This document shows positions 43,738-57,896 of a stretch of DNA of 64,000 nucleotides, piece by piece. The stretch is from Blastocatellia bacterium. Its GTDB lineage: Bacteria > Acidobacteriota > Blastocatellia > RBC074. The notes beneath the pieces are model-generated. The model worked only from the letters and a program-made list of their open reading frames with translations. It was not told the origin of the DNA and ran no database searches. The DNA lies in assembly GCA_035560235.1 (NCBI GenBank), contig DATMAG010000120.1, positions 3,930 through 67,929 of the forward strand, read 5' to 3'. The translations under genes and the position numbers were made by a program. Each line of letters starts with the position of its first letter. Positions within the stretch are counted from its first letter, which is position 1.

Positions 43738-44688
43738 TTACGGGGTGGCATAATAACCTTCGCGAGCGCGGACGATCAGTGAGGGCAGTCCCTTCGGCGG
43801 ATTGATGCGCACTTTGATCTTCCGCCATTTGCCATCGCGCTTGTCGTTGAGCGGCACATAGCCGAGGCTGTACTGATGGCGCAGCACCAGCGCGATGCGC
43901 GTGACGGCGTCTTCGAGTTCTTCCCACGAATGCGGAAAGAAGGCCAGCCCGCCCGTCGTGTGCGCAATCTCTTCGAGAATCGTCTGGCCCTGCCGGTCAA
44001 GAACGCTGCCCGCCGCTGCGCCTTCCTCGCCAATCCCGATGCAGTAGATCTGCACATCGGATTCCTTCAGCAGGCGGCTCAGTTCGCCGTAGCTGTAGCG
44101 CGAAGAGTTATCCTGCCCGTCAGAAATGACGAGCAGCGCGCGTTTGTCGTGACGGCCTTCTCTGGCCTTCTCAACGCCCAGACAGGCCGCATCAAAGAGC
44201 GCCGTCTGACCGTTCGGATCAACGAGCGTGAGTTTGTTGATAATTGTTTCTCCGCCGGAGAAGCCTGAGAGCAGGCTGGCGCGCTGATTGAAGCCGACGA
44301 GAAAGAAGTCATCCTCGTCGTGGCTGGTTTCAATGAAGGCCTTGAGCGCTTCGCGGGCGCGGCTGAGCTTGTGTTTCATGCTGCCCGAGAGGTCGAAGAT
44401 GATGCCGATGCTCAGCGGCGTGTCTTCATCGCTGAAGAAATCAATCTTTTGTCTGACCTTGTCCTCGTAAACCTCGAAACGATCCCTGTCGAGTCCGGTG
44501 ATCTGCCGATTGAACTGATCCATCACCGTCACATTAACCGTCACCAGAGTCGTATGCTGCCTGATGACCGGCTCCTGCGTGCTGCTGCGCGGCTGCTGTC
44601 CTGATGAGGCCGGAGCGAGCAGCAGCAGTGCAGAGAGCGAAGCCATGAGCTTCAAATAAACCCGTCGTCGCTGGCCGCGCGCATTCAT
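43738..44688 (-). CDS. von Willebrand factor A domain protein (secreted)
   Basis: MIDAS motif DLSGSM and a signal peptide. Confidence 0.7.
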   Translation of the reverse strand: MNARGQRRRVYLKLMASLSALLLLAPASSGQQPRSSTQEPVIRQHTTLVTVNVTVMDQFNRQITGLDRDRFEVYEDKVRQKIDFFSDEDTPLSIGIIFDLSGSMKHKLSRAREALKAFIETSHDEDDFFLVGFNQRASLLSGFSGGETIINKLTLVDPNGQTALFDAACLGVEKAREGRHDKRALLVISDGQDNSSRYSYGELSRLLKESDVQIYCIGIGEEGAAAGSVLDRQGQTILEEIAHTTGGLAFFPHSWEELEDAVTRIALVLRHQYSLGYVPLNDKRDGKWRKIKVRINPPKGLPSLIVRAREGYYATP

Positions 44689-45197: not shown

Positions 45198-46694
45198 GTG
45201 AACAGAACAATCAACGGCGCACGACCCGGCAGGCTGATGCAGCGCAGCCTGCTGCTCTGGCTGGTAATCGCCTTTCTGGCGCTGCATTTGTTCGAAGGCT
45301 GCCGGAAGCGGGATGAAGTCTCGGAACTGCCGATGGCTGCGCCCGCCGGTTCGCCGCTTGTGAGCGGTGGCGCGGCGGTCTCTTATGCCGATCTGGTCAG
45401 CCGGGTCGCTCCGGCAGTCGTGACCATTCGTTCGGAGCGGCGCGTGCGCGCTCCGCAGCAGCATCCGTTCTTCGATGACCCGTTCTTCCGCGAGTTCTTT
45501 GGGGACAGGTTCGGCGGGATGCAGCCCCGCGAACAGATTGAGCGCGGCCTGGGGTCGGGCGTGATCGTGACTCAGGATGGTTACCTGCTGACCAACCATC
45601 ACGTCATTGACGGCGCTGAAGAGATCAAGGTCGAACTGACGAACAATCGCGTCTACGATGCCAGAGTCGTCGGCACTGATCCGCGCAGCGATCTGGCCGT
45701 CCTCAGAATCAACGCTTCGGGGCTGCCGCTGCTCGCGCTCGGCGATTCAGACCGCGTGCGGGTGGGCGATGTGGTGCTGGCCATCGGCAATCCGCTCGGG
45801 GTCGGACAGACCGTCACCGCCGGAATCATCAGCGCGAAGGGGCGCACGACCGGCCTGAGCGACGGCAGCTTTGAAAGCTTTCTGCAGACCGATGCGCCGA
45901 TCAACCGGGGCAATTCGGGCGGCGCGCTCGTCAACACTGCGGGCGAACTGATCGGCATCAACTCGCAGATCCTTTCACCGACGGGCGGCAACATCGGCAT
46001 CGGCTTCGCCATCCCGGCCAACATGGCCCGCAGTGTTGCGGATCAGCTGATGAAGCAGGGCAAAGTGCGGCGCGGCATGCTTGGCGTTTCGATTCAGCCG
46101 GTGACTTCTGAGATCGCACAGAGTCTGGGGCTGAAGGATGTGCGCGGCGTCATCATCAGCTCCATCGAACCCGGCAGCCCGGCTGAACGCGCCGGACTGA
46201 AGCAGGGTGACATCATCACGGCTTTCAATGACAGGGAAGTCAGCGACAGCAACAGCCTGCGCAATCTGGTGGCGAGCACTGCGCCCGGCACTGAAGTGAC
46301 GCTGACGATTCTGCGCGACGGGCGCGAGCAGCAGGTGCGCGCCACGCTCGGTGAACTGTCGAATCAGGTGAATCAGAATCAGCGCGGCGGTGAAGGGAAC
46401 TCAGGCGAAGGGCATTTCGGAATGAGCGTGACTCCGCTCACGCCTGAAATCGCTGCGCAACTCGGCCTGCCGCGCGATGCGCAGGGCCTCGCGGTGAGCG
46501 CGGTTGATCCGGCGGGCGCTGCCGCTGATGCCGGACTCCGGCCCGGCGATGTGCTCGAACAGGTCAATCGTCAGCCGGTGCGAACAGTGGACGAACTCAA
46601 ATCCGCGCTTGATAAAACCGGTGATCGTCCGGCGCTGCTGCTCGTCAACCGGCGCGGCAATCGCGTATTTCTGACGCTGCGCGCACGGCGCTGA
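45198..46694 (+). CDS. DegQ/HtrA-family serine protease with two PDZ domains
   Basis: TNHHVIDGAE, DLAVLRI and GNSGGAL, plus 2 PDZ. Confidence 0.85.
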   Translation: MNRTINGARPGRLMQRSLLLWLVIAFLALHLFEGCRKRDEVSELPMAAPAGSPLVSGGAAVSYADLVSRVAPAVVTIRSERRVRAPQQHPFFDDPFFREFFGDRFGGMQPREQIERGLGSGVIVTQDGYLLTNHHVIDGAEEIKVELTNNRVYDARVVGTDPRSDLAVLRINASGLPLLALGDSDRVRVGDVVLAIGNPLGVGQTVTAGIISAKGRTTGLSDGSFESFLQTDAPINRGNSGGALVNTAGELIGINSQILSPTGGNIGIGFAIPANMARSVADQLMKQGKVRRGMLGVSIQPVTSEIAQSLGLKDVRGVIISSIEPGSPAERAGLKQGDIITAFNDREVSDSNSLRNLVASTAPGTEVTLTILRDGREQQVRATLGELSNQVNQNQRGGEGNSGEGHFGMSVTPLTPEIAAQLGLPRDAQGLAVSAVDPAGAAADAGLRPGDVLEQVNRQPVRTVDELKSALDKTGDRPALLLVNRRGNRVFLTLRARR

Positions 46695-46910
46695 TTCAGC
46701 CGCATTAAGCTCCGGCACTCGGTACGTTGGCGGACAGACTGTGCGCTGTCGCTGCCATAAGCTTGTGTTTCCCCCGCCAGTCACTCCCCGGGAACAATCA
46801 TTCGCAGCTCAGTCAGACTTTCAGCGGCAGCCGGGCCTGTTCGCCGCCGGATGCTGTGGCGCGGCAGTCCCTGAACAACAGCAACAGACAACATCACGAG
46901 GAGGAAGATA

Positions 46911-47977
46911 TGGCAGACTATTATCGCAACTATGGCAGCGAGAGATACGGACGCCGCTCCGATGAAGACGATGAACGCTACCGGCGCGGGCGCAGTCGCG
47001 AGGAGGACCGTGGCTTCTGGGATCGCGCCGGTGATGAAGTCCGCTCCTGGTTTGGCGACGATGAAGCCGAACGCCGTCGCCGGATGGATGAGATGGAAGA
47101 TGAGCGTCGCTATGGCCGCGAAGGTTACGGCAGCTATGGCCGCGAAAGCTATCGCCGCGGCTATGACCGGGGCTACGGACGGGAAGGCTACTACGGCAGC
47201 GAACCGTACCGGAGCAGTTACGAGCGCGGCAGCTATGGCCGCAGCGCCTGGGGCCGCGAAGGTTACTCAGGCAGCCGCTACTCCGGTCGTGAATCAGGAC
47301 GCGAAGGCTGGTCAGGCGGCACTTCCGAGACTGAACGGGGCGCCTATGGCCGCGATTACGGGCGCGGCTATTACGGCAGCGGCTACGGCGGCGGTTATGG
47401 CGGCAGCGCTTACGGCACCGGCTCCTACAGCGGCAGTTCCGGCAGCTACACGAGCGGCATGGATTATGGCCGGTACGGAACATACGGCAGTGATTATGGC
47501 CGCGAGTATAGCCGCGACTACGGACGCAGCGGGCAGTATGGTTCCGGCGATTATGAATCGGAGCGTGGTTACAACACGCCTGCATCCTGGAGCTACACCG
47601 AGATGTGGTGGGTTCCGGGGCCATACACCGGGCGCGGGCCGAGCGGTTATCAGCGTTCGGATGAACGCATCACCGAAGATGTCAACGAACGGCTGCAGCA
47701 GCACGGACAGATTGATGCGAGCAACATCACTGTCAGCGTCAACAATGGCGAGGTCACGCTTTCAGGCACGGTCAACAGCCGGATGGAGAAACGCATGGCT
47801 GAAGACGTGGCCGAGTCCTGCTCAGGCGTAAGGGAAGTCCACAACAACCTGCGCGTCTTGCGTGAGCAGAGCCAGCAGTACGGCACTTCACAAACGCAGA
47901 CCGGCGCTCAGTCTTCAACTCAGCAGAGCCAGACCGGTCAGACATCCTCCACGCGCACCAGAACCACGTCCGGCTGA
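46911..47977 (+). CDS. SWFGD/BON-domain protein with long RG/YG-rich low-complexity region
   Basis: RBS GGAGGA before the ATG at 46911. N-terminal motif (VRSWFGDDEAERRRR), about 170 aa of G/Y/R/S repeats, the conserved block GPYTGRGPSGYQRSDERITEDVNERL, and a C-terminal BON domain. Confidence 0.65.
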
Positions 47978-48015
47978 GGTCGGAAGTGACAGATCCAAGG
48001 CTGGAGGTCAAAGGA

Positions 48016-48074
48016 AAGCGGGAGAACGCGCCGGACAGTTAATCTTGAAGCCCGGCAGATTCTCCCGCTTTTCG
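48016..48074 (+). terminator. terminator-like hairpin
   Basis: AAGCGGGAGAA ... TTCTCCCGCTT followed by TTCG. Confidence 0.45.
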
Positions 48075-48652
48075 CATTTCAGGGCATCAGAAGAGCAAAA
48101 TAAAAACGGCTGCCAGAATCATCCATCAGAAAGTGACGGAACTGATTGTGACAGCCGAAACAGTTTCGGGACGGGGTGGCACGTTCACCCATTCCATGCC
48201 ACCGGATGATGCCTGCATCCCGCCCGCCCCAAAACCTTCTCCAATCCTTATTGGAGGTCCACAGGCTCAGCCCAACGCAAACGCAATGCCTTGTCCCGCG
48301 GCTGAAGAAGGCTGAACTAAACGGTTCCTGAAACCTGATTGAGTGCTGTTACGCACGGGGTTGATGCACACGGGTGTACGGGTGTCTGTTGCGCGAACAA
48401 TGCGTGTGGCTGCGGGGTGAAAGCTGCCTTCCTGTCTGTCATCAGAACAAAGTGATCTGTTCAGGGACGAGGCCGGAACTTCCGGTCAGGCTCAGGCTGA
48501 AACGAATGTATACCGCTGCTGCCGCGACGGCTGAACCTGCGCGCTGTAACTGTACTGCTCGCAAAGGCTGAGTGCGTGCTCAGACTGACTGGCATTTTGC
48601 TTGCCTTGTCCGAGGCTGGATGTTCTGGAAAGCGTAAGAGGGTGGCATCACC

Positions 48653-49813
48653 ATGAAAATGACTTCGCAAAAACTGAAGACCATGAAAGCGGCAGCCGGC
48701 GCAGAGGGAGCCGCCGACTGGGTCACACTTAATGCCAGGCAGCGCTGTGATGAAGCGGGAATGTTCGAGCAGGAACTCTTTGCGCGGGTTGTGTCGCAGG
48801 ATGACGCGGTGCTGGCGCTGTCACAGCTTTATCAGCTCTATCTGGCGAAACTGAATCTGCCGGGCAAGCCGATTGGCACGCTGCTTTTTCTTGGCCCGAC
48901 CGGATCGGGCAAGACGCGGTCAGTCGAAGCCGCCGCCGAGATTCTCTTTGGCGATCCGTACGCGATGATCAAGATTGACTGCGCCGAGTTTCAGCATTCG
49001 CATGAAATCTCGAAGCTCGTTGGCTCGCCGCCAGGTTATCTCGGCCATCGTGAAACACAGCCGCTGCTGTCGCAGGACAATATTGACCGCTTTCAGACGC
49101 CGAACAAGAAGCTGACGTTCGTGCTGTTTGACGAAATCGAGAAGGCGAGCGATGCGCTCTGGCAACTGCTGCTCGGCATTCTCGACAAGGCCACGCTCAC
49201 GCTCGGTGACAATCGCCGCGTTGATTTTTCGCGCTGCGTGATTGTGATGACCTCGAATCTGGGCGCACGGGAAATGAGTCTGGTGACGGAAGGCAAAATG
49301 GGATTTACCCCGTGCGAGATCACCTCGCCGGAACTGAATGCGAAGCTCGAAAAGATCGGCATCGAGGCGGCGCGGCGCAAGTTCTCGCCGGAATTTATGA
49401 ACCGGCTCGACAAGGTGGTGGTCTTTCAGTCGCTGACTGAAGCCGCGATGAGACGCATTCTGGATCTGGAACTGGAAATTGTGCAGCGGCGCATTCTGAC
49501 CGCCGGACGCGGGCCGTTTGTGCTGCGCTGCACTGAAGAAGTGAAGGAGTTTCTGCTCAGGGAAGGCTTTGATCGTCGCTACGGGGCACGGCCTCTGAAA
49601 CGGGCGATTGAGCGCCACCTGATCATTCCGCTCTCGAATCTGATTGCAACCGGACAACTCAATGCCGGTGATGTGCTGGTGGTGGATGAGGATGATGGTG
49701 ACGGGGAACTTTGTTTCCGCAAGGCGAGTGGCGCTTCGGCATTCGGAATCGAGAGCGGATTGCATAATCCGGGCGGTTTTGTTCCCGCACCGGCAACTGT
49801 GCTGGGATTCTGA
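48653..49813 (+). CDS. stand-alone Clp/Hsp100 D2-type AAA+ ATPase
   Basis: A single NBD (GPTGSGKT; VLFDEIEKA; sensor/arginine finger) plus a C-terminal small domain. It aligns to the second ATPase module of ClpA/ClpB. There is no N-domain, D1 or ClpP-loop. Confidence 0.7.
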   Translation: MKMTSQKLKTMKAAAGAEGAADWVTLNARQRCDEAGMFEQELFARVVSQDDAVLALSQLYQLYLAKLNLPGKPIGTLLFLGPTGSGKTRSVEAAAEILFGDPYAMIKIDCAEFQHSHEISKLVGSPPGYLGHRETQPLLSQDNIDRFQTPNKKLTFVLFDEIEKASDALWQLLLGILDKATLTLGDNRRVDFSRCVIVMTSNLGAREMSLVTEGKMGFTPCEITSPELNAKLEKIGIEAARRKFSPEFMNRLDKVVVFQSLTEAAMRRILDLELEIVQRRILTAGRGPFVLRCTEEVKEFLLREGFDRRYGARPLKRAIERHLIIPLSNLIATGQLNAGDVLVVDEDDGDGELCFRKASGASAFGIESGLHNPGGFVPAPATVLGF

Positions 49814-49958: not shown

Positions 49959-50621
49959 ATGAGGAAAAGTATTCTGGCTTTCATCGTGATCACGGCAATC
50001 AGCATGGCTCTTTATGGCTGTGCCACAACCAGCCGGGAAGGGACTGGAACCGGCACGGCCTCGCCTGCTGCAAAGATGTCTGATTCCGATCTGGAAAACA
50101 GCATCAAGGCGAAAATCAATTCTGATGAACAGCTCCGCGCTGCCAATCTGGATGTTGATGCCAATGCTGATCGCAATGAAGCGACTCTGTCCGGCACGGT
50201 CGAGTCTGAAGCATTGCGCACCCGCGCCGTTGAACTGGCGAAGAGCGCGCATTCAGGTCTGATCGTGACCGACAAGATTGATGTCAAACCGCGCGAACTC
50301 TCACGGTCGGAATACACCGATGAGAATGCGCGTGAAGAAAGAGCAAAGGCAAAGGAGCGTGGAGAAACAATCGGCTCTTCGCTTGACGATGCCTGGATTC
50401 ACGCCAAGATCGTGACCAAACTGATCGGCAATGCCAGTACGCCGGAACGCAAGATCAACGTGGACGTCAACAACAACGTGGTGACGCTGCGTGGTACTGT
50501 GGATACGGCGGAGGCGAAGATGGAGGCCGAACGTGTGGCGAAGGAAACCGAGGGCGTCAAGCGCGTCGTCAACCAGCTCAAGGTTGGTGCTGCGGCCAGT
50601 TCGACACCGGCCCATAAGTAA
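49959..50621 (+). CDS. OsmY-like lipoprotein with two BON domains
   Basis: Lipobox LYGCA and two BON repeats (...ATLSGTVES; ...VTLRGTVDT). Confidence 0.7.
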   Translation: MRKSILAFIVITAISMALYGCATTSREGTGTGTASPAAKMSDSDLENSIKAKINSDEQLRAANLDVDANADRNEATLSGTVESEALRTRAVELAKSAHSGLIVTDKIDVKPRELSRSEYTDENAREERAKAKERGETIGSSLDDAWIHAKIVTKLIGNASTPERKINVDVNNNVVTLRGTVDTAEAKMEAERVAKETEGVKRVVNQLKVGAAASSTPAHK

Positions 50622-50721: not shown

Positions 50722-50787
50722 GATGACGGAACAAACGGAATGAACGGATGTTTTCGTGTGTTTCGTTCACTTCGTTTGTTCCGTCAT
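50722..50787. repeat. strong hairpin related to the GAATGAAC repeat family
   Basis: GATGACGGAACAAACGGAATGAACGGA / TCCGTTCACTTCGTTTGTTCCGTCATC arms. Confidence 0.5.
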
Positions 50788-50835
50788 CATTCTTCCGGCC
50801 CGACACCACTGCACTCGTGCTGAGTGAGCGCGAAT

Positions 50836-52038
50836 ATGAACAGAGGACTGCGCATAGGCCGGATTTTCGGCATCAGCATTCAGGTTGACGCCAGCTGGAT
50901 TCTGATTTTTCTGCTCGTGACCTGGAGTCTGGCTGCAGGCGTCTTTCCGGAGTGGCATCCGGAATGGTCAGGCTGGACGAACCAGGCTGTGGCGATTGCG
51001 GGAGCGCTGCTCTTCTTTGTTTCGATTCTGCTGCACGAACTGTCGCACTCGCTCGTGGCAAAGGCGCGCGGGCTGCCGGTGCGGCGGATTACGCTGTTTC
51101 TGTTCGGCGGCGTCTCAAACATCGAACGCGAGCCGCCAACACCAAAGACCGAATTTCTGATGGCCGTCGTCGGGCCGCTCACAAGCATCGTGCTGGGAGT
51201 CATCCTGGTTGCGCTGAGCACGGTCAGCCTTACCTGGCCGGAGGTCTTTCCGGGAGATACCAGGCAGATCATCGGCGCACTCGGCCCGGTTTCGACGCTG
51301 CTGCTGTGGCTCGGGCCGGTCAATATTTTTCTGGGCATCTTCAATCTGCTGCCCGGGTTTCCGCTCGACGGCGGGCGCATTCTGCGTTCGATTCTCTGGC
51401 AGACAAGCGGCGATCTGCAAAAGGCTACAAGATGGGCGGCCTCTGTCGGACGCCTCACCGGCTGGCTGTTTATTCTGACTGGCATTGCGATGGTCTTTGG
51501 CCTTCGCGTGCCTGTTTTCGGCGCAGGCCTGGTCAGTGGCCTGTGGCTGGTGCTGATCGGCTGGTTCCTGAGCGATGCGGCGGTGACGAGCTATCAGCAG
51601 ACAGTGATTCGCAACCTGCTCGAAGATGTCCCGGTCTTCCGGCTGATGCACTCGAATGTTCCGGTCGTGCCTCCGACGATGCCCGTCAGCGTGCTGGTTT
51701 ACGACTGGATTATGGGAACTGATGAACGCGCCTTTCCGGTGATGGAAGCAGATCATCTGGTTGGTCTGGTCTGCCTTGAGGATGTGCGCCGGGTGCCGCG
51801 CGAGCAGTGGGAGCAGACGACTGTCGGCGAGATCATGACGCGGCTGAATCAGCTTGATGTCGTGGCCGCTCGCGAAGACGCGAGCGAAGCGCTCGAAAAG
51901 CTCACGCGCCGCGACGTGCGTCAGGTGCCGGTTGTTGATAACGGACGGCTGGTCGGCCTGCTGCGCCGCCGCGACATCATCAAGTGGCTGCAGCTGCAGT
52001 CAGGCTTCAACCTGCCCGGCCAGAGCCTGCAGGCCTGA
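50836..52038 (+). CDS. site-2 protease (M50) family membrane metalloprotease with C-terminal CBS pair
   Basis: HELSH zinc motif, an LPGFPLDGGR second motif, and tandem CBS domains. Confidence 0.75.
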   Translation: MNRGLRIGRIFGISIQVDASWILIFLLVTWSLAAGVFPEWHPEWSGWTNQAVAIAGALLFFVSILLHELSHSLVAKARGLPVRRITLFLFGGVSNIEREPPTPKTEFLMAVVGPLTSIVLGVILVALSTVSLTWPEVFPGDTRQIIGALGPVSTLLLWLGPVNIFLGIFNLLPGFPLDGGRILRSILWQTSGDLQKATRWAASVGRLTGWLFILTGIAMVFGLRVPVFGAGLVSGLWLVLIGWFLSDAAVTSYQQTVIRNLLEDVPVFRLMHSNVPVVPPTMPVSVLVYDWIMGTDERAFPVMEADHLVGLVCLEDVRRVPREQWEQTTVGEIMTRLNQLDVVAAREDASEALEKLTRRDVRQVPVVDNGRLVGLLRRRDIIKWLQLQSGFNLPGQSLQA

Positions 52039-52608: not shown

Positions 52609-53172
52609 TCAGGCTCCGGCCCGTGTTTCCGGCTGAGGACGCGCGTCGGGCGGCGGAGTCCCGGTTTCATCTTCTTCGTCTTCTGTCTCTTCAATCAAAG
52701 CCGGATTCAGATCAGCTTCACTGAGCCGTTCCATCAGCCAGTGACGAAAGATTTCAGCTTCGTGGCCTTTGCGCGTCCACCGCGCGCGATTGAACATCGT
52801 CATCGCCATCATCAGCGCGTGATGCTGCCCGGCGCGATCACCGGCCAGTTCAAACTGATGATACAGGCGATCAATCAAATCCACGCTCTGCCGCGCCGCC
52901 TCTTCATCTCTGAAGCCGAGCTTCCCGGCAAAGAATCTTGAGTAAACATTCATCGGCTGGCCGGTCGTCGTGTACAGATCGAAATAGCCGCTGATCAGTC
53001 CCGCCTGCTGCAGAACCGAAGCGACATAACCGGGCCGCGAGCCGGTAATCATTGCCAGATCCTCAACGCTGCCCACGCCGTTCGTGAAGAGCGCAATGAT
53101 CTGATCCTTTTTCGATACGCGCCGCTCGCGCTGCGCGCCTGATTCACGTTCACGCATTAAGTCTCGTTTCAT
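52609..53172 (-). CDS. hypothetical protein with putative N-terminal HTH and acidic C-terminus
   Basis: Upstream of and coupled to doxX; no confident domain. Start uncertain. Confidence 0.35.
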   Translation of the reverse strand: MKRDLMRERESGAQRERRVSKKDQIIALFTNGVGSVEDLAMITGSRPGYVASVLQQAGLISGYFDLYTTTGQPMNVYSRFFAGKLGFRDEEAARQSVDLIDRLYHQFELAGDRAGQHHALMMAMTMFNRARWTRKGHEAEIFRHWLMERLSEADLNPALIEETEDEEDETGTPPPDARPQPETRAGA

Positions 53173-53177
53173 ACACT

Positions 53178-53801
53178 GTGAATAGTATGCAAATTGCAAG
53201 CCTCATCGGTGCCATGCCGAAACAGCAGTTGAAGAAAAAAGCTGAGAATGAACGGCGGCTCGAAGAACTGGCCGCCGCAATTCGCGTCTGTGTCAGATGC
53301 CCGCTGCACGAATCGCGCACTCTGGCCGTGCCGGGCGACGGAACAGTGAAGGCAAAGGTGATGATTATCGGCGAAGCGCCGGGGCGCGATGAGGATACGA
53401 CCGGACATCCGTTTGTGGGCGCAGCCGGGCGCTTTCTCGACTCGGTGCTTGAGGGCAGCGGCATCAGACGCGAGGATCTTTTCATCACCAACACGGTCAA
53501 ATGCCGTCCGCCGCAGAACCGCACGCCGCGCAGGCTGGAAGTTGACACCTGCACCTCGAACTATCTGTTCGAGCAGATTGAACTCATCAATCCGCAGCTC
53601 GTCATGCTGCTCGGCAGCGTGGCGGCAAAAAAAGTGCTGGGAATCAAAACCATCGGCGAGGCGCGCGGGCAGGTCATCGAACGCGACGGGCGCAAATATC
53701 TGGTCGGTTATCACCCGGCAGTCAGGTTTTATCGTGAAGACCTGGCCGAAAAGGTCAGAGAGGATTTCGATCTGCTCAGAAGAGTAATCGAACAATTGTA
53801 A
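53178..53801 (+). CDS. uracil-DNA glycosylase, family 4
   Basis: GEAPGRDED motif, Cys ligands (CVRCPLHE...) and an HPA(V) C-terminal motif. Confidence 0.75.
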   Translation: MNSMQIASLIGAMPKQQLKKKAENERRLEELAAAIRVCVRCPLHESRTLAVPGDGTVKAKVMIIGEAPGRDEDTTGHPFVGAAGRFLDSVLEGSGIRREDLFITNTVKCRPPQNRTPRRLEVDTCTSNYLFEQIELINPQLVMLLGSVAAKKVLGIKTIGEARGQVIERDGRKYLVGYHPAVRFYREDLAEKVREDFDLLRRVIEQL

Positions 53802-54091: not shown

Positions 54092-54664
54092 GTGAGAATG
54101 CTGACCCGCTTGCGACGACGCAGAGATGAGGATGTCCTGAAAGGCCTGCTGGTCGGCGCGATCAGCGGGCTGGCTGCATCCTGGGTGATGAATCAGTTTC
54201 AGGCGTGGCTGAGCCATATGGCTGGCAGCGACGGTAATTCGCACGGCGCGCAGTCAGAGCAGCAGGGCACACCGCCGCACGGACAGCAGCCGCGCAGCGA
54301 AAATTCGGACGATGACGCGACTGAAAGACTCGCGGCTGTGCTGTCTGAAAACATTGCCGGACAGATGCTGACTGAAGACGAAAAGAAGTCTGCAGGCACA
54401 GCCCTTCACTATGCTTTTGGCGTCACGACCGGCGCGGCTTACGGCGCGGCAGCCGAACTGCTGCCACAGGTGAAGGCCGGAGCCGGAATACCATTCGGCG
54501 CGCTGGTCTGGCTGACGGCGGATGAGGGCGTCGTGCCTGCGCTCGGGCTGTCGAAAACGCCGACAGATTATCCGCTGTCAATTCATGCTTACTCACTGGC
54601 TTCGCATCTGGTCTACGGCGCGACAACCGAAGGCCTGCGCCGTGTGCTGCGCCCTTTGCTCTGA
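54092..54664 (+). CDS. DUF1440 family membrane protein
   Basis: Gly/Ala-rich TM helices in the typical DUF1440 pattern. Confidence 0.45.
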   Translation: MRMLTRLRRRRDEDVLKGLLVGAISGLAASWVMNQFQAWLSHMAGSDGNSHGAQSEQQGTPPHGQQPRSENSDDDATERLAAVLSENIAGQMLTEDEKKSAGTALHYAFGVTTGAAYGAAAELLPQVKAGAGIPFGALVWLTADEGVVPALGLSKTPTDYPLSIHAYSLASHLVYGATTEGLRRVLRPLL

Positions 54665-54767: not shown

Positions 54768-55277
54768 ATGTCACAGTTCAGCAGATGGAATGATGACCGC
54801 GAGCGCAGCTACGTCGAACGCGCCGCTGATGAGGTTCGCGCCTGGCTCGGTGACGACGAGGCTGTCAGGCGCAGGCGCGAGGATATGCGGCGCAACAGCC
54901 GGGGCGAGGGCCGTTACAAGGGCACCTTTGATCGCGCCGATCTGCATGGCTTCGGTTACGAAAGCGCGGAGAGCGGCATCCGGCAGCCGCGAACCCGTCA
55001 CGAATGGGAACGGATGCGCGGCCCGTATGCAGGGCGCGGTCCGCAGGGGGACAGGCGCTCTGATGAGCGAATCGCGGAAGAGATCAATGAGCAGCTGACG
55101 CATCACGGAATGATTGATGCCACACAGATTCAGGTCAGAGTGCAGGATGGCGAGGTCACGCATGAAGGCACTGTCGGCAGCCGCGCGGAGCGGCGCCTGG
55201 CTGAGGCCGCTGCTGAATCCTGCTCCGGCGTCAGAGAAGTTTTCAATCACCTGCGGGTCAATCGAAATGGTCAGTAA
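54768..55277 (+). CDS. SWFGD/BON-domain protein (short paralog of 46911-47977)
   Basis: Shares AWLGDDEA, GPYAGRGPQGDRRSDERIAEEINEQL and a BON domain (...ESCSGVREVFNHLRV) with the long paralog. Confidence 0.65.
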   Translation: MSQFSRWNDDRERSYVERAADEVRAWLGDDEAVRRRREDMRRNSRGEGRYKGTFDRADLHGFGYESAESGIRQPRTRHEWERMRGPYAGRGPQGDRRSDERIAEEINEQLTHHGMIDATQIQVRVQDGEVTHEGTVGSRAERRLAEAAAESCSGVREVFNHLRVNRNGQ

Positions 55278-55360: not shown

Positions 55361-56845
55361 ATGATGATCGCTTCAGTAAATCAGTGGCTGAAGCGCGCAC
55401 GCACGGCGGCCTGGCTGACCGGGCTGCTGTCGGCTGCCGTTGCGGGACAGAGTGTGCCGGGGCCGGGATTCAATCTTTTTTCGCCGCCGCAGGAGATTGA
55501 AATCGGGCGGGAATCAGCCGCACAAATCGAGCGGCAGGCGCCGCTGCTGCGCGATGCCACTCTCAGCAGTTATCTCAATCGCATCGGGCTGCAGCTCGCC
55601 GCGCAGGCTCCGGGCGAGCGTTACCCGTGGAGCTTCAGAGTCATCAATGTTCCTGACATTGCCGCATTCGCGCTGCCGGGCGGGCCTGTTTATCTGACTC
55701 GCGGAGCGATTGAAGCGGCGCACAGCGAAGGAGAGCTGGCCGGACTGATTGCGCACGCGCTGGCGCATATTGCCCTGCGTCACGGGGCCGGGCAGGCCTC
55801 GAAGGCATATCTGGCGCAGGCGGGCCTGAGCGTGATGGGCGGGCTGCCGGGCGGTGCGCTGGCCGGGATCATCGGCGCGGTGGGTGGTTGCGGACTCAAT
55901 CCGGTCTTTCTCAATTACAGCCGCGAGGCCGAGATGCAGGCCGATCTGCTGAGTGCGCAGATGCTGGCGCAGGCCGGATACGATCCGCGCGAACTTGCGA
56001 GCTTCTTCGAGACGGCGCGCCGCAGCGGGAATGCTCAGTCCGGGCAGACATCCTGCTTCAGCGATCATCCGTCGCTGCTCAGTCGGCGCGAGCGCGTCAT
56101 CCAGTCGGCCATGCAACTGCTCGTGCCGCGCCCGCTGCAGCGTGGCTACAGCTTCGATCAGATGCAGCATTACGTCGCAAGCCTGCCGCGTTCAGACCTC
56201 AGAAGCATTCCTTTTGGCGGCGCAGTGGCGGGTGTGTCGCGGCCACCGTCGGGCGCGGTGATTGATGTTCGCATCGAAAAGCCTTCTCCCCGAACCATCA
56301 TCTGGCGTCAGCCGGGGAGCCTTTATAACGTCGCTTATCCGGATAACTGGCAGGCCTGGCCGAGCAGCGACAGGTTCGGGGTGACTTTCGTTCCGGCGGG
56401 CGGAGCCGTGCAGAGAAACGGCATCGAGCAGCTTGTGTACGGCGCAATGATCAATCACTACCGCCCGCTTGGCGACAACAGCCGGTTCAGCGGGCGGCCA
56501 CAGCGCAGGCTGCGTTACGTCGGCGGACGCGGCGCGCTGCCCGAGGCGACGAATGATCTGCTCAACAGCCTCCTGCAGAATAATCCGCAGCTCGATTACG
56601 TGCGCGGTTCAGCGCGCCGGGGAACGATTGACGGAGGCCGGGCGATCACGCTGACGCTGACCGGACGTTCACCCATCACCGGACGCGCCCAGCAGGTGCA
56701 GCTTTACACGCGGACGCGCGATGAAGAGCGCATAAATGATGCGCTCTTCATCGCGCCGGATGATGAGTTCGCTGACCTCCGTCACATCTTCAATCAGATG
56801 CTGCGCAGCCTGAACATTGATGATCGGGCGCTGGACGAGAACTGA
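55361..56845 (+). CDS. M48/BepA-like peptidase homolog with HALAH in place of HExxH
   Basis: SEGELAGLIAHALAHIALRHG aligns to the BepA block NEAELASVMAHEISHVTQRH. The catalytic Glu codon reads GCG (Ala) at 55757-59. A signal peptide is present. Confidence 0.65.
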   Translation: MMIASVNQWLKRARTAAWLTGLLSAAVAGQSVPGPGFNLFSPPQEIEIGRESAAQIERQAPLLRDATLSSYLNRIGLQLAAQAPGERYPWSFRVINVPDIAAFALPGGPVYLTRGAIEAAHSEGELAGLIAHALAHIALRHGAGQASKAYLAQAGLSVMGGLPGGALAGIIGAVGGCGLNPVFLNYSREAEMQADLLSAQMLAQAGYDPRELASFFETARRSGNAQSGQTSCFSDHPSLLSRRERVIQSAMQLLVPRPLQRGYSFDQMQHYVASLPRSDLRSIPFGGAVAGVSRPPSGAVIDVRIEKPSPRTIIWRQPGSLYNVAYPDNWQAWPSSDRFGVTFVPAGGAVQRNGIEQLVYGAMINHYRPLGDNSRFSGRPQRRLRYVGGRGALPEATNDLLNSLLQNNPQLDYVRGSARRGTIDGGRAITLTLTGRSPITGRAQQVQLYTRTRDEERINDALFIAPDDEFADLRHIFNQMLRSLNIDDRALDEN

Positions 56846-56861
56846 CCGGAAGGCTCGGCTG

Positions 56862-57896
56862 ATGGACGTGATTCTCTTTCCCTTTGGTGATTACTGGTGG
56901 CTGTACGCAGGCTTTGTCGTCTTCGTGCTGCTGATGCTGGCGCTCGATCTGGGCGTTTTTCAGCGCCACGCGCACGCGGTTTCGTTTCGTGAGGCTGCGA
57001 TCTGGAGCGCCGTCTGGGTGATCCTCTCGCTCGGATTCAATTTTGCTCTCTGGCGCTATGCGCTCTGGCAACTGCCGCGCGATCCGCGTCTCGCGGCAAT
57101 TCCCGGTTTCGATCCCGAAGCGGCGGCGTGGCAGGCGGCGCTGGAATTTCTGACCGGCTATGTGGTCGAAAAATCGCTCTCGGTTGATAACATCTTCATC
57201 TTCGTTGTCATCTTCAGCTACTTCAATACTCCGGCCAGATATCAGCACCGGGTGCTTTTTTACGGCATCCTGGGCGCGCTCGTCTTTCGCGCCAGCTTCA
57301 TCGCCATCGGCACGGCGCTCGTGCAGTATCACTGGGTGCTGGTGGTCTTCGGCCTCTTTCTGATCGTCACGGGCGGGCGGATGATCTTTGCCGGTCGCGA
57401 AAAGTACGAGCCGGAGCGCAACCCGCTGCTGCGGCTCTTCCAGCGGCTGGTTCCGGTGACGGCTGAGCCTGAGGATGAGCATTTCTTCGTGCGGCAGAAC
57501 GGCAGGCTGCACGCCACGCCGCTGCTGATTGCGCTCTTCGTCCTTGAAATGACGGACATCATCTTTGCGATTGATTCGGTGCCCGCGATCTTTGCGCTGA
57601 CGAATGAGCCGCTGATCGTCTTCACTTCAAACATCCTTGCGATTCTCGGCCTGCGTTCGATGTACTTCATGCTCGCCGGAGCGGTGGAAAAATTTCATCT
57701 GCTCAAATACGGCCTGGCGGTCGTGCTTATCTTTGTTGGCCTGAAGATGGTCTGGCTCAATGATCTCTTTGGCGGCAAATTCCCGATCAGCCTCTCGCTC
57801 GGCATCATCATCTCAACCATCGGCGCTTCGATTGTTCTTTCGCTGCTCTTTCCGAAACGTGCGCAGGCGTGGCACAGGCGCGAGCGGCACATCTGA
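56862..57896 (+). CDS. TerC-family integral membrane protein
   Basis: TerC-like TM layout and conserved Asp/Glu in TM (VDNIFIFVVIF; LEMTDIIFAIDSVPA). Confidence 0.7.
   Translation: MDVILFPFGDYWWLYAGFVVFVLLMLALDLGVFQRHAHAVSFREAAIWSAVWVILSLGFNFALWRYALWQLPRDPRLAAIPGFDPEAAAWQAALEFLTGYVVEKSLSVDNIFIFVVIFSYFNTPARYQHRVLFYGILGALVFRASFIAIGTALVQYHWVLVVFGLFLIVTGGRMIFAGREKYEPERNPLLRLFQRLVPVTAEPEDEHFFVRQNGRLHATPLLIALFVLEMTDIIFAIDSVPAIFALTNEPLIVFTSNILAILGLRSMYFMLAGAVEKFHLLKYGLAVVLIFVGLKMVWLNDLFGGKFPISLSLGIIISTIGASIVLSLLFPKRAQAWHRRERHI

Follow-up and report, generated by a model that had tools for sequence, protein, structure and literature searches.

In the FET family (FUS/EWS/TAF15) and in the arginine-glycine-glycine (RGG) regions of LAF-1 and DDX4, disordered segments with a Gly/Ser/Tyr-rich sticker-and-spacer make-up drive phase separation, and even patterning of aromatic residues is associated with liquid-like phase separation of prion-like domains. 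The condensates known from bacteria are a few case studies, namely RNase E bodies, PopZ, Dps, and aggresomes, and we know of no recognised, widespread bacterial family that is defined by a Tyr/Arg/Gly sticker-and-spacer domain. Herein, we analyzed a stretch of 64,000 nucleotides (nt) from a Blastocatellia bacterium (GenBank assembly GCA_035560235.1, contig DATMAG010000120.1, positions 3,930 to 67,929), hereafter called the window, and focused on a gene for a protein of 355 amino acids (aa) in which a long low-complexity region lies between an SWFGD domain and a BON domain. This protein is an ordinary member of a very large, catalogued, and functionally unexplored family. As the best explanation as a whole, we tentatively propose a cytoplasmic, stress-made protectant of the hydrophilin type with sticker-driven self-association, in which the BON modules would give specific contact.

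The layout described in the initial annotation, with an SWFGDDEA motif, a low-complexity region, a conserved C-terminal block, and a BON domain, was confirmed by NF033157, Pfam, and the translation (Table 1), and all the peptides quoted there were found in the translation of 46910-47977. The open reading frame (ORF) exists as well, but not with its start at 46911, as the ATG is at 46910 and the frame from 46911 gives a stop codon. SWFGDDEA occupies residues 46-53, inside the NF033157 match, where AlphaFold predicted two moderately confident helices (H36-46 and H51-70; predicted local distance difference test score, pLDDT, 58-75). Invariant columns were read from an alignment of 39 family members. 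They comprised E43, W47, D50, R56, and R57 in the SWFGD domain and G237, P238, G241, G243, P244, R249, and R253 in the GPY block (GPYxGRGPxGYxRSDERI), which was present in 80 genome ORFs with or without SWFGD. The BON domain was modeled with pLDDT >90 (H251-265, E273-278, E281-288, H291-303, and E309-316), and Foldseek and hidden Markov model (HMM) searches matched it to OsmY (8rjx), DolP (7a2d), Kbp (7pvc), and BonA (6v4v). The best match in the PDB was OsmY, and the PDB relatives covered the BON domain only. A tail with a basic C-terminal end recurred across the family alignment. BON was the sole Pfam family detected in the protein at E ≤ 0.01, with no RNA recognition motif (RRM), zinc finger, late embryogenesis abundant (LEA), dehydrin, SMP, or CsbD/KGG match.

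A search with the full 355-aa protein, in which 8000 candidates were scored, gave 3330 homologs at E < 1e-5, and in about 80 of the best 120 the linker from SWFGD to GP[YHF]xGRGP was 90-200 aa long and rich in R/G/Y/E/S. Considering that this search is biased by the low-complexity region itself, two samples independent of the region were used. In the first, the short paralog at 54768-55277 served as the query against a 50%-identity representative library. This search was swamped by 6xBON proteins, so that only a few SWFGD-type rows were usable; these relatives were mostly 210-370 aa, and the only short one was P0121 (158 aa). The second sample was a genome scan seeded on two conserved peptide motifs, which gave at least 548 loci, 80 of which were kept and surveyed for architecture with small HMMs. 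The loci of the whole scan came from Acidobacteriota, Chloroflexota, Rhodothermales, Gemmatimonadota, Alpha- and Gammaproteobacteria, Myxococcota, Bacteroidota, Deinococcota (Trueperaceae), Methylomirabilota, Bdellovibrio, and Obscuribacterales, about 10 phyla overall. In the 120 aa before the GPY-BON block, G/Y/R/S/D/E/Q/N/W made up at least 70% of residues in 72 of the 80 ORFs (medians over those 120 aa: 85% G/Y/R/S/D/E/Q/N/W, 15% aromatic, and 7% aliphatic). Since the long region is the rule in samples that are independent of it, it is an ancient, defining feature of the family, with the short form as the exception. The initial annotation had regarded the region as a lineage-specific insertion, and this claim does not hold: 72 of the 80 independent ORFs carry such a region, the short paralog is the rare form, and a comparison across homologs revealed that a long linker of 90-200 aa is typical.

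The flavor of the region varied with lineage, being R/Y/G/E here, R/D/Y/G in Rhodothermales and Alphaproteobacteria, and G/Q/Y/S in Nannocystis, Roseobacter, and Gemmatimonadaceae. In Alphaproteobacteria, the region was N-terminal of SWFGD, and SWFGD abutted the BON block; in many members with the GPY-BON block, the SWFGD motif was undetectable. Most family members were from soil. The family is already catalogued under the NCBI name "SWFGD domain-containing protein" (NF033157). In the literature searched, there was no paper on the SWFGD domain ("SWFGD" returned unrelated acronyms only) or on SMb20225, a Sinorhizobium meliloti member described below, and nothing on RpoE2 or EcfG together with a BON domain or on desiccation in connection with a disordered BON protein; the SWFGD/low-complexity/BON architecture was also missing from a review of BON proteins. 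Several variant architectures were observed. A Paracoccus marcusii plasmid protein (L089 3677-4477) had two SWFGD motifs, a Microvirga roseola protein (L067 5356-6735) had a CBS-domain N-terminus fused to the low-complexity region and BON, and two proteins of 550-600 aa (P0003 and P0006) had a transmembrane segment at the N-terminus, with about 280 additional residues ahead of SWFGD.

The repeats in the DNA of the low-complexity region were 60-80% identical, the longest exact repeat was 15 nt, and every spacing was a multiple of 3. Such repeats are degenerate and old, and assembly collapse or expansion is therefore unlikely. A 3017-nt contig in the Logan assembly of the SRA run SRR7882662 was 100% identical to window positions 45987-49003 and encoded the same protein. 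Compared with the 66%-identical ortholog in a Blastocatellia metagenome-assembled genome (MAG; protein P0001, locus L001), the ratio of nonsynonymous to synonymous substitution (dN/dS) was 0.20 in the low-complexity region, 0.08 in the BON core, and 0.11 in the N-terminus, and the low-complexity alignment had in-frame indels of YGR-type units. The low-complexity region is thus under purifying selection. An assembly artefact had been named in the initial annotation as a possible objection; the independent identical contig, the degenerate repeats, the dN/dS of 0.20, and the presence of the region in relatives indicated that the region is real. The probability that GC-rich repeats produced the region through an assembly or frame error, so that the gene itself is not real, is close to nil: long ORFs do cross the region antisense as well as in a different frame, as expected of GC-rich repeats, but the called frame is the one with the low dN/dS, and SWFGD and BON flank the region in the same frame across thousands of homologs.

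The composition claimed for the region was borne out. Residues 61-235 consisted of 25% Gly, 18% Tyr, 16% Ser, 13% Arg, 10% Glu, and 4% Asp, with no Lys and only 8 aliphatic residues; there were 32 Tyr and 23 Arg. The commonest unit was YGR[ED] (9 copies), accompanied by 8 [GS]Y[GS] motifs and 18 RG/GR dipeptides, and there was no RGG triplet. The charged fraction was 0.27, the net charge per residue was -0.006, and there was little Gln. Residues 151-185 were the only near-uncharged part and, by composition, look most like the FUS prion-like domain; tandem repeats detectable by Tandem Repeats Finder were solely at 47355-47434. Disorder, for which a prediction had been suggested, was supported by the AlphaFold model, in which residues 70-232 had pLDDT <50 and no secondary structure. 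The 37 aromatic residues in the region had a mean spacing of 4.6 with a standard deviation (SD) of 2.09, compared with 3.94 ± 0.62 in shuffled sequences, and none of 1000 shuffles reached this evenness. The linkers of 74 of 75 homologs were also more evenly spaced in aromatics than their own shuffles (median z -1.8; 34 below -2). The designation "FUS/RGG-like" in the initial annotation holds as a compositional resemblance and is not supported beyond composition, considering that the region has 0 RGG triplets and 27% charged residues with a net charge near 0 and that the protein has no RRM or zinc finger.

The Arg and Tyr contents and the 18 RG/GR dipeptides would also suit an RNA- or ribosome-associated stress protein, whose Arg/Gly/Tyr-rich region binds RNA and protects or stores RNA or ribosomes in dormant cells, in analogy to the tails rich in Gly on RNA-binding proteins of eukaryotes and cyanobacteria and possibly in ribonucleoprotein granules. 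Weak Foldseek matches of the alpha/beta domain to ribosomal protein uS3-type domains (E 0.01-0.05) and one distant homolog located two genes from an RRM protein point in the same direction. However, the uS3 matches were far weaker than the BON matches, Pfam detected no RNA-binding domain, and there was no conserved RNA-metabolism neighbourhood. RNA binding is less likely because the region is net neutral, without RGG triplets, and the whole protein is acidic (net charge -4, isoelectric point 5.6), and we regard this explanation as distinctly unlikely.

The main rival of the protectant reading is that the low-complexity region acts only as a flexible hydrophilic spacer or entropic bristle, and that the protein is a cytoplasmic BON sensor or binder without self-association. 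The BON domain would then bind anionic membrane lipid, as in DolP, or K+ or an osmolyte, as in Kbp, and report or buffer osmotic change. DolP is localised via BON-mediated phospholipid binding (PMC7806268). This rival accounts well for the conservation of BON and the GPY block, which were the most conserved parts (dN/dS 0.08, invariant columns), whereas the low-complexity sequence was poorly conserved and its position relative to SWFGD varied between phyla. The short paralog and its ortholog keep the modules with a linker of only about 60 residues, and all the structurally solved relatives (DolP, OsmY, and Kbp) work via the BON fold. A spacer, however, has no need for 15% evenly spaced aromatics in nearly all members or for a 50:1 bias of Arg over Lys, and the region is held at 100-200 aa in most lineages. 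We consider the spacer explanation rather unlikely.

With regard to location, the 355-aa protein was strongly hydrophilic (grand average of hydropathy, GRAVY, -1.52; Gly 17.5%; 50 Arg versus 1 Lys; 40 Tyr). No hydrophobic segment was found in it, the top 19-residue window reaching 0.4 on the Kyte-Doolittle scale, which indicates that there is no signal peptide or membrane segment. The protein is soluble and presumably cytoplasmic, like Kbp, which is located in the cytoplasm. A hydrophobic 15-mer was likewise absent from 115 of 120 homologs. Garay-Arroyo et al. reportedly defined hydrophilins in 2000 by Gly >6% and a hydrophilicity index >1; the 355-aa protein and 116 of 120 homologs fall within this definition, in line with the hydrophilin-type physico-chemistry that had been proposed. 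An exported, OsmY-like periplasmic chaperone is a very improbable alternative. The Joint Genome Institute names many homologs "osmotically-inducible protein OsmY", and OsmY was the best PDB match of the BON domain, but neither this protein nor 115 of the 120 homologs has a signal peptide, and the window has a separate gene, at 49959-50621, for a true OsmY/DolP-like lipoprotein. Identity with OsmY was rejected (NF007858 36.8 bits versus the equivalog cutoff of 174; one BON domain, not two; no signal peptide), and so was identity with DolP/YraP (NF008247 27.7 bits versus a cutoff of 184; no lipobox; one BON domain).

Evidence on regulation came from relatives. A strict EcfG-type site, GGAAC-N16-17-CGTT, was located about 60-95 nt before the start in 8 of 8 Microvirga loci, in one Rhodobacter locus, and before the Paracoccus marcusii plasmid gene, whose product bears the RefSeq name "SWFGD domain-containing protein"; variants ending in GGTT were found in Tianweitania, a Rhizobiaceae MAG, and S. 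meliloti pSymB. As background, the strict motif had a density of 0.008 per 100 nt per strand in these loci. The sites in Microvirga do not count as independent events; a tally by genus gives three strict cases and three variants. In sequence as well as position, the element agrees with the published EcfG consensus, a motif that is enriched up to 100 bp from the start codon (PMC6599016). The S. meliloti pSymB gene (NC_003078 231657-232482, minus strand; SWFGD 57 bits, plus BON) is SMb20225 by gene order and strand, and adjoins SMb20226, ndiA-1, ndiA-2, and ndiB. When RpoE2 was overexpressed, the published transcriptome showed SMb20225 raised by log2 2.51 (5.7-fold; adjusted P 8e-17), and the adjacent ndi genes rose with it (PMC6180224 Data Set S1). 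Because SMb20225 is induced by RpoE2, at least part of the family belongs experimentally to the general stress regulon. In general terms, the stress role put forward in the initial annotation thus gains support from the EcfG promoters of relatives and from SMb20225. This region of S. meliloti pSymB (L088; CP140883.1 1499957-1508319) carried six EcfG/RpoE2-like GGAAC-N16-17-[CG]GTT motifs in 8.3 kb. They precede the SWFGD-BON gene, the ndi operon, two small hypothetical genes, and a DUF4142 gene and make up a compact general-stress island.

According to the protectant reading that we tentatively favor, the 355-aa protein would be made mainly under stress or in the stationary phase (osmotic stress, desiccation, or starvation), like its alphaproteobacterial relatives via EcfG/RpoE2. 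As a hydrophilin-type protectant, it would become concentrated as water activity falls. Within a net-neutral, well-mixed polyampholyte, its Tyr/Trp stickers at even distances and its Arg residues could then make aromatic-aromatic and Arg-aromatic contacts, and these multivalent contacts might drive reversible self-association into a condensate or gel. PMC10888811 names Tyr and Arg as the primary drivers of phase separation by prion-like domains. BON, the GPY block, and the SWFGD helices may give a specific contact with anionic membrane lipid, a small ligand or ion, or the protein itself, and this contact may localise or nucleate the assembly, whereas the short paralog would have the same folded modules with little multivalency. 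Support for these steps decreases from stress expression through protectant self-association to contact by the BON module. Self-association of the low-complexity region is plausible in view of its sticker pattern.

Several points weigh against this proposal. Condensate or gel formation is proposed from composition, and the region differs from the validated FUS low-complexity domain in its 27% charged residues and in lacking RGG motifs. The sequence charge decoration (SCD), a measure of charge patterning, was -0.48, not different from shuffles; the charges are well mixed, and polyampholytes of this type can remain soluble. The even aromatic spacing could be a mere by-product of an origin from short tandem repeats. 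Among the 120 homologs, 5 of the longer ones had an N-terminal transmembrane segment, indicating that some members are membrane-tethered. On the side of regulation, no recognisable promoter for 46910-47977 was found within the window. Stress regulation was seen in Alphaproteobacteria alone, and in that class the low-complexity region is found on the opposite side of SWFGD; even there, no EcfG-type site was present in 4 of 5 Azospirillum loci (the fifth had a variant only, 347 nt upstream) or in the Novosphingobium and Caulobacteraceae loci examined.

A broader proposal is conceivable, yet doubtful: GPY-BON proteins, with SWFGD or without it, would be pan-bacterial, stress-induced scaffolds in at least 10 phyla, which undergo reversible phase separation or gelation in the cytoplasm on water loss while BON tethers them to the inner membrane face. 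If so, they would be a bacterial functional counterpart of FUS-like proteins and tardigrade CAHS-like protectants and a widespread determinant of the survival of soil bacteria on drying. If the low-complexity region drives protective self-assembly, the family would offer a genetically tractable entry into the drying survival of non-sporulating soil bacteria, for which S. meliloti SMb20225 and the Microvirga genes are candidates, and it would also put the Tyr/Arg "molecular grammar" to an independent evolutionary test. If not, the gene simply adds to the uncharacterised stress proteins with a BON domain. For studies of bacterial condensates and desiccation, the whole family is a worthwhile lead, while the gene in the window is itself ordinary.

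Of the flanking signals, the gene's own ribosome-binding site (RBS), as claimed, was identified as GGAGGA. The 215-nt leader (46695-46909) shared the conserved blocks GGTACG, CGGACAGAC, and CCGCCGGATG with L001 9780-10000 in an alignment with L001 and L002 (proteins 66% identical). These blocks could belong to a promoter or a structured 5' untranslated region (UTR); the sequences are too few for covariation. A GGAAC-like element in the leader was considered as an extracytoplasmic function (ECF) sigma factor promoter and rejected, as it is not conserved in L001. Scanning 46600-48700 for sigma-70 promoters and strict terminators gave no call, and among the 8-mers shared by the upstream regions of both paralogs and five neighbouring stress genes, there were only scattered, chance-like matches and no common promoter or motif. 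The claim that the gene has its own terminator stands in part: a GC-rich hairpin with a U-rich tail is present, but it was not called by the strict scan, and the terminator assignment of 48013-48083 thus derives from the RNA fold only (47975-48110, 136 nt; -45.2 kcal/mol, z = -3.0). Rfam at gathering thresholds found no RNA family in the whole window, including the 215-nt leader and the 675-nt downstream gap.

Table 1. Positions of the SWFGD-BON gene, its parts, and neighbouring features in the window
Feature	Position	Strand	Remarks
VWA gene	43738-44688	-	Near the SWFGD-BON gene
HtrA/DegP protease gene	45198-46694		Directly upstream neighbour
Upstream region (promoter/5' UTR)	46695-46909	+	215 nt; partly conserved with ortholog locus L001
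RBS GGAGGA	46899-46904	+	5 nt before ATG; read directly from the sequence
Coding sequence, SWFGD/low-complexity/BON protein	46910-47977	+	Stop codon included; ORF listing and translation; 355 aa
SWFGD domain, residues 32-60	47003-47089	+	NF033157, 54.3 bits versus cutoff 35; predicted helix-turn-helix
Low-complexity disordered region, residues 61-235	47090-47614	+	175 aa; Y/G/R/S/E polyampholyte with evenly spaced aromatics
Near-uncharged [G/S]Y[G/S] sub-block, residues 151-185 (GRGYYGSGYGGGYGGSAYGTGSYSGSSGSYTSGMD)	47360-47464	+	40% Gly, 7 Tyr, charged fraction 0.06
Conserved GPYTGRGPSGYQRSDERI block, residues 237-254	47618-47671	+	Leads into BON helix 1; family alignment
BON domain, residues 250-317	47657-47860	+	PF04972, 79.2 bits (gathering 27), E 2.9e-22; alpha-beta-beta-alpha-beta
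C-terminal Q/S/T-rich disordered tail, residues 319-355	47864-47974	+	Composition; low pLDDT; ends ..sR..tRTtsg
Terminator-like long hairpin, then U-rich tail UUUUCGCAUUU	48013-48083	+	Hairpin 48013-48073, GC-rich
ClpB-D2-only AAA+ gene	48653-49813	+	386 aa; 675 nt downstream; AAA_2 and ClpB_D2-small
OsmY/DolP-like 2xBON lipoprotein gene	49959-50621	+	220 aa; signal ...ISMALYGC; also in L001; two genes downstream
M50-CBS protease gene	50824-52038		Pfam context listing
DUF1440 gene	54092-54664		Context listing; upstream of short paralog
Short paralog: SWFGD, ~60-aa linker, GPYAGRGP block, BON	54768-55277	+	169 aa; HMM matches; same modules in AlphaFold
M48 peptidase gene	55361-56845		Context listing
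TerC gene	56817-57896		Context listing

The SWFGD-BON gene is surrounded by proteostasis and envelope-stress genes (Table 1), a setting in line with the stress reading. The orphan Hsp100 D2 ATPase reported next to it is indeed there; its product aligns to ClpB positions 559-849, without the N-domain, D1, and middle domain, and is conserved (376-397 aa) in the Blastocatellia relative. This ATPase was rejected as a functional partner: among relatives, just the closest ones have it near the gene, and none of the 80 distant loci does. The order VWA/DegP/SWFGD-BON was kept only in close Acidobacteriota relatives (46-66% identity). When 12 window neighbours were searched against the 80 distant loci by tblastn, the ClpB-D2 gene had 0 matches and any other at most 2. 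These results indicate that no neighbour is conserved in distant loci, that the gene behaves as a stand-alone unit, and that the Hsp100-D2 adjacency is local. In the closest relative, a BrkB-like gene lies between the SWFGD-BON and ClpB-D2 genes; it occupies the equivalent of 47978-48652 on the minus strand in L001, L003, and L005. The 675-nt gap at 47978-48652 in the window contained no convincing ORF, Rfam match, or BrkB-like remnant.

Two further observations were made downstream. The intergenic stretch directly before the M50-CBS gene holds an inverted repeat of 25 nt at 50722-50788 (GATGACGGAACAAACGGAATGAACG/CGTTCACTTCGTTTGTTCCGTCATC; 92% complementary, 17-nt spacer), which might act as an operator or form a hairpin in the RNA. 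On the minus strand, 52609-53199 encodes a 196-aa protein with no Pfam or NCBIfam match, beside a uracil-DNA-glycosylase-family gene at 53178-53801 on the plus strand, which was identified by synteny with the PF03167 gene at L001 15608-16219 and not by direct scan. The two genes run in opposite directions and share 22 nt at their 5' ends; L001 has this pair as well.

The short paralog retains the conserved blocks, as initially annotated. It scored 39.0 bits for SWFGD and E 9e-16 for BON, and was 53% identical to the 355-aa protein over the C-terminal 117 aa; its AlphaFold model had the same modules and the same disorder pattern. Its ortholog P0121, the 158-aa protein of a Blastocatellia MAG, was 64% identical, and both the long and the short paralogs were kept in the Blastocatellia MAG (64-66% identity) with near-identical gene order. 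No further SWFGD-BON copy was found within the window.

Compared with the FET family, the region of the 355-aa protein is likewise disordered and Gly/Ser/Tyr-rich, with evenly spaced Tyr plus Arg, and the likeness is closer in the G/Q/Y/S regions of Nannocystis, Roseobacter, and Gemmatimonadaceae relatives. Nevertheless, the protein has no homology to FET proteins and no RRM, zinc finger, nuclear localisation signal, or RGG triplets, and its folded partner is BON. As regards the prion-like domain of that family, 8 [GS]Y[GS] motifs occur in the region, and one block of 35 residues (151-185) is uncharged, at a charged fraction of 0.27 overall and with little Gln. The FUS low-complexity domain is nearly uncharged (PMC5641905), whereas in the 355-aa protein a single segment intersperses Arg and Tyr with Glu and Asp, and 27% of its residues are charged. 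The likeness to hydrophilins and LEA proteins lies in Gly >6%, hydropathy below -1, predicted disorder, and stress-induced relatives; however, there is no LEA, dehydrin, or CsbD/KGG Pfam match, and the Tyr/Arg richness and the folded BON are atypical of LEA proteins. With OsmY, DolP, and Kbp/YgaU of E. coli, the protein shares the alpha-beta-beta-alpha-beta BON fold and the association with osmotic or envelope stress. OsmY and DolP differ in having two BON domains and in being exported, DolP as a lipoprotein; Kbp differs in pairing BON with LysM; and all three are without the SWFGD motif, the GPY block, and a long Tyr/Arg/Gly region. Every equivalog score of the 355-aa protein fell far short of its cutoff. 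In SMb20225 and WP_347920182.1 (Paracoccus marcusii), the low-complexity region is N-terminal of SWFGD, unlike in the window protein, and the Paracoccus protein has two SWFGD motifs. Like the window protein, both have the SWFGD helix motif, the GPxGY.RSDxRI block, one BON domain, and an adjoining R/G/Y/D/E-rich disordered region, with no signal peptide.

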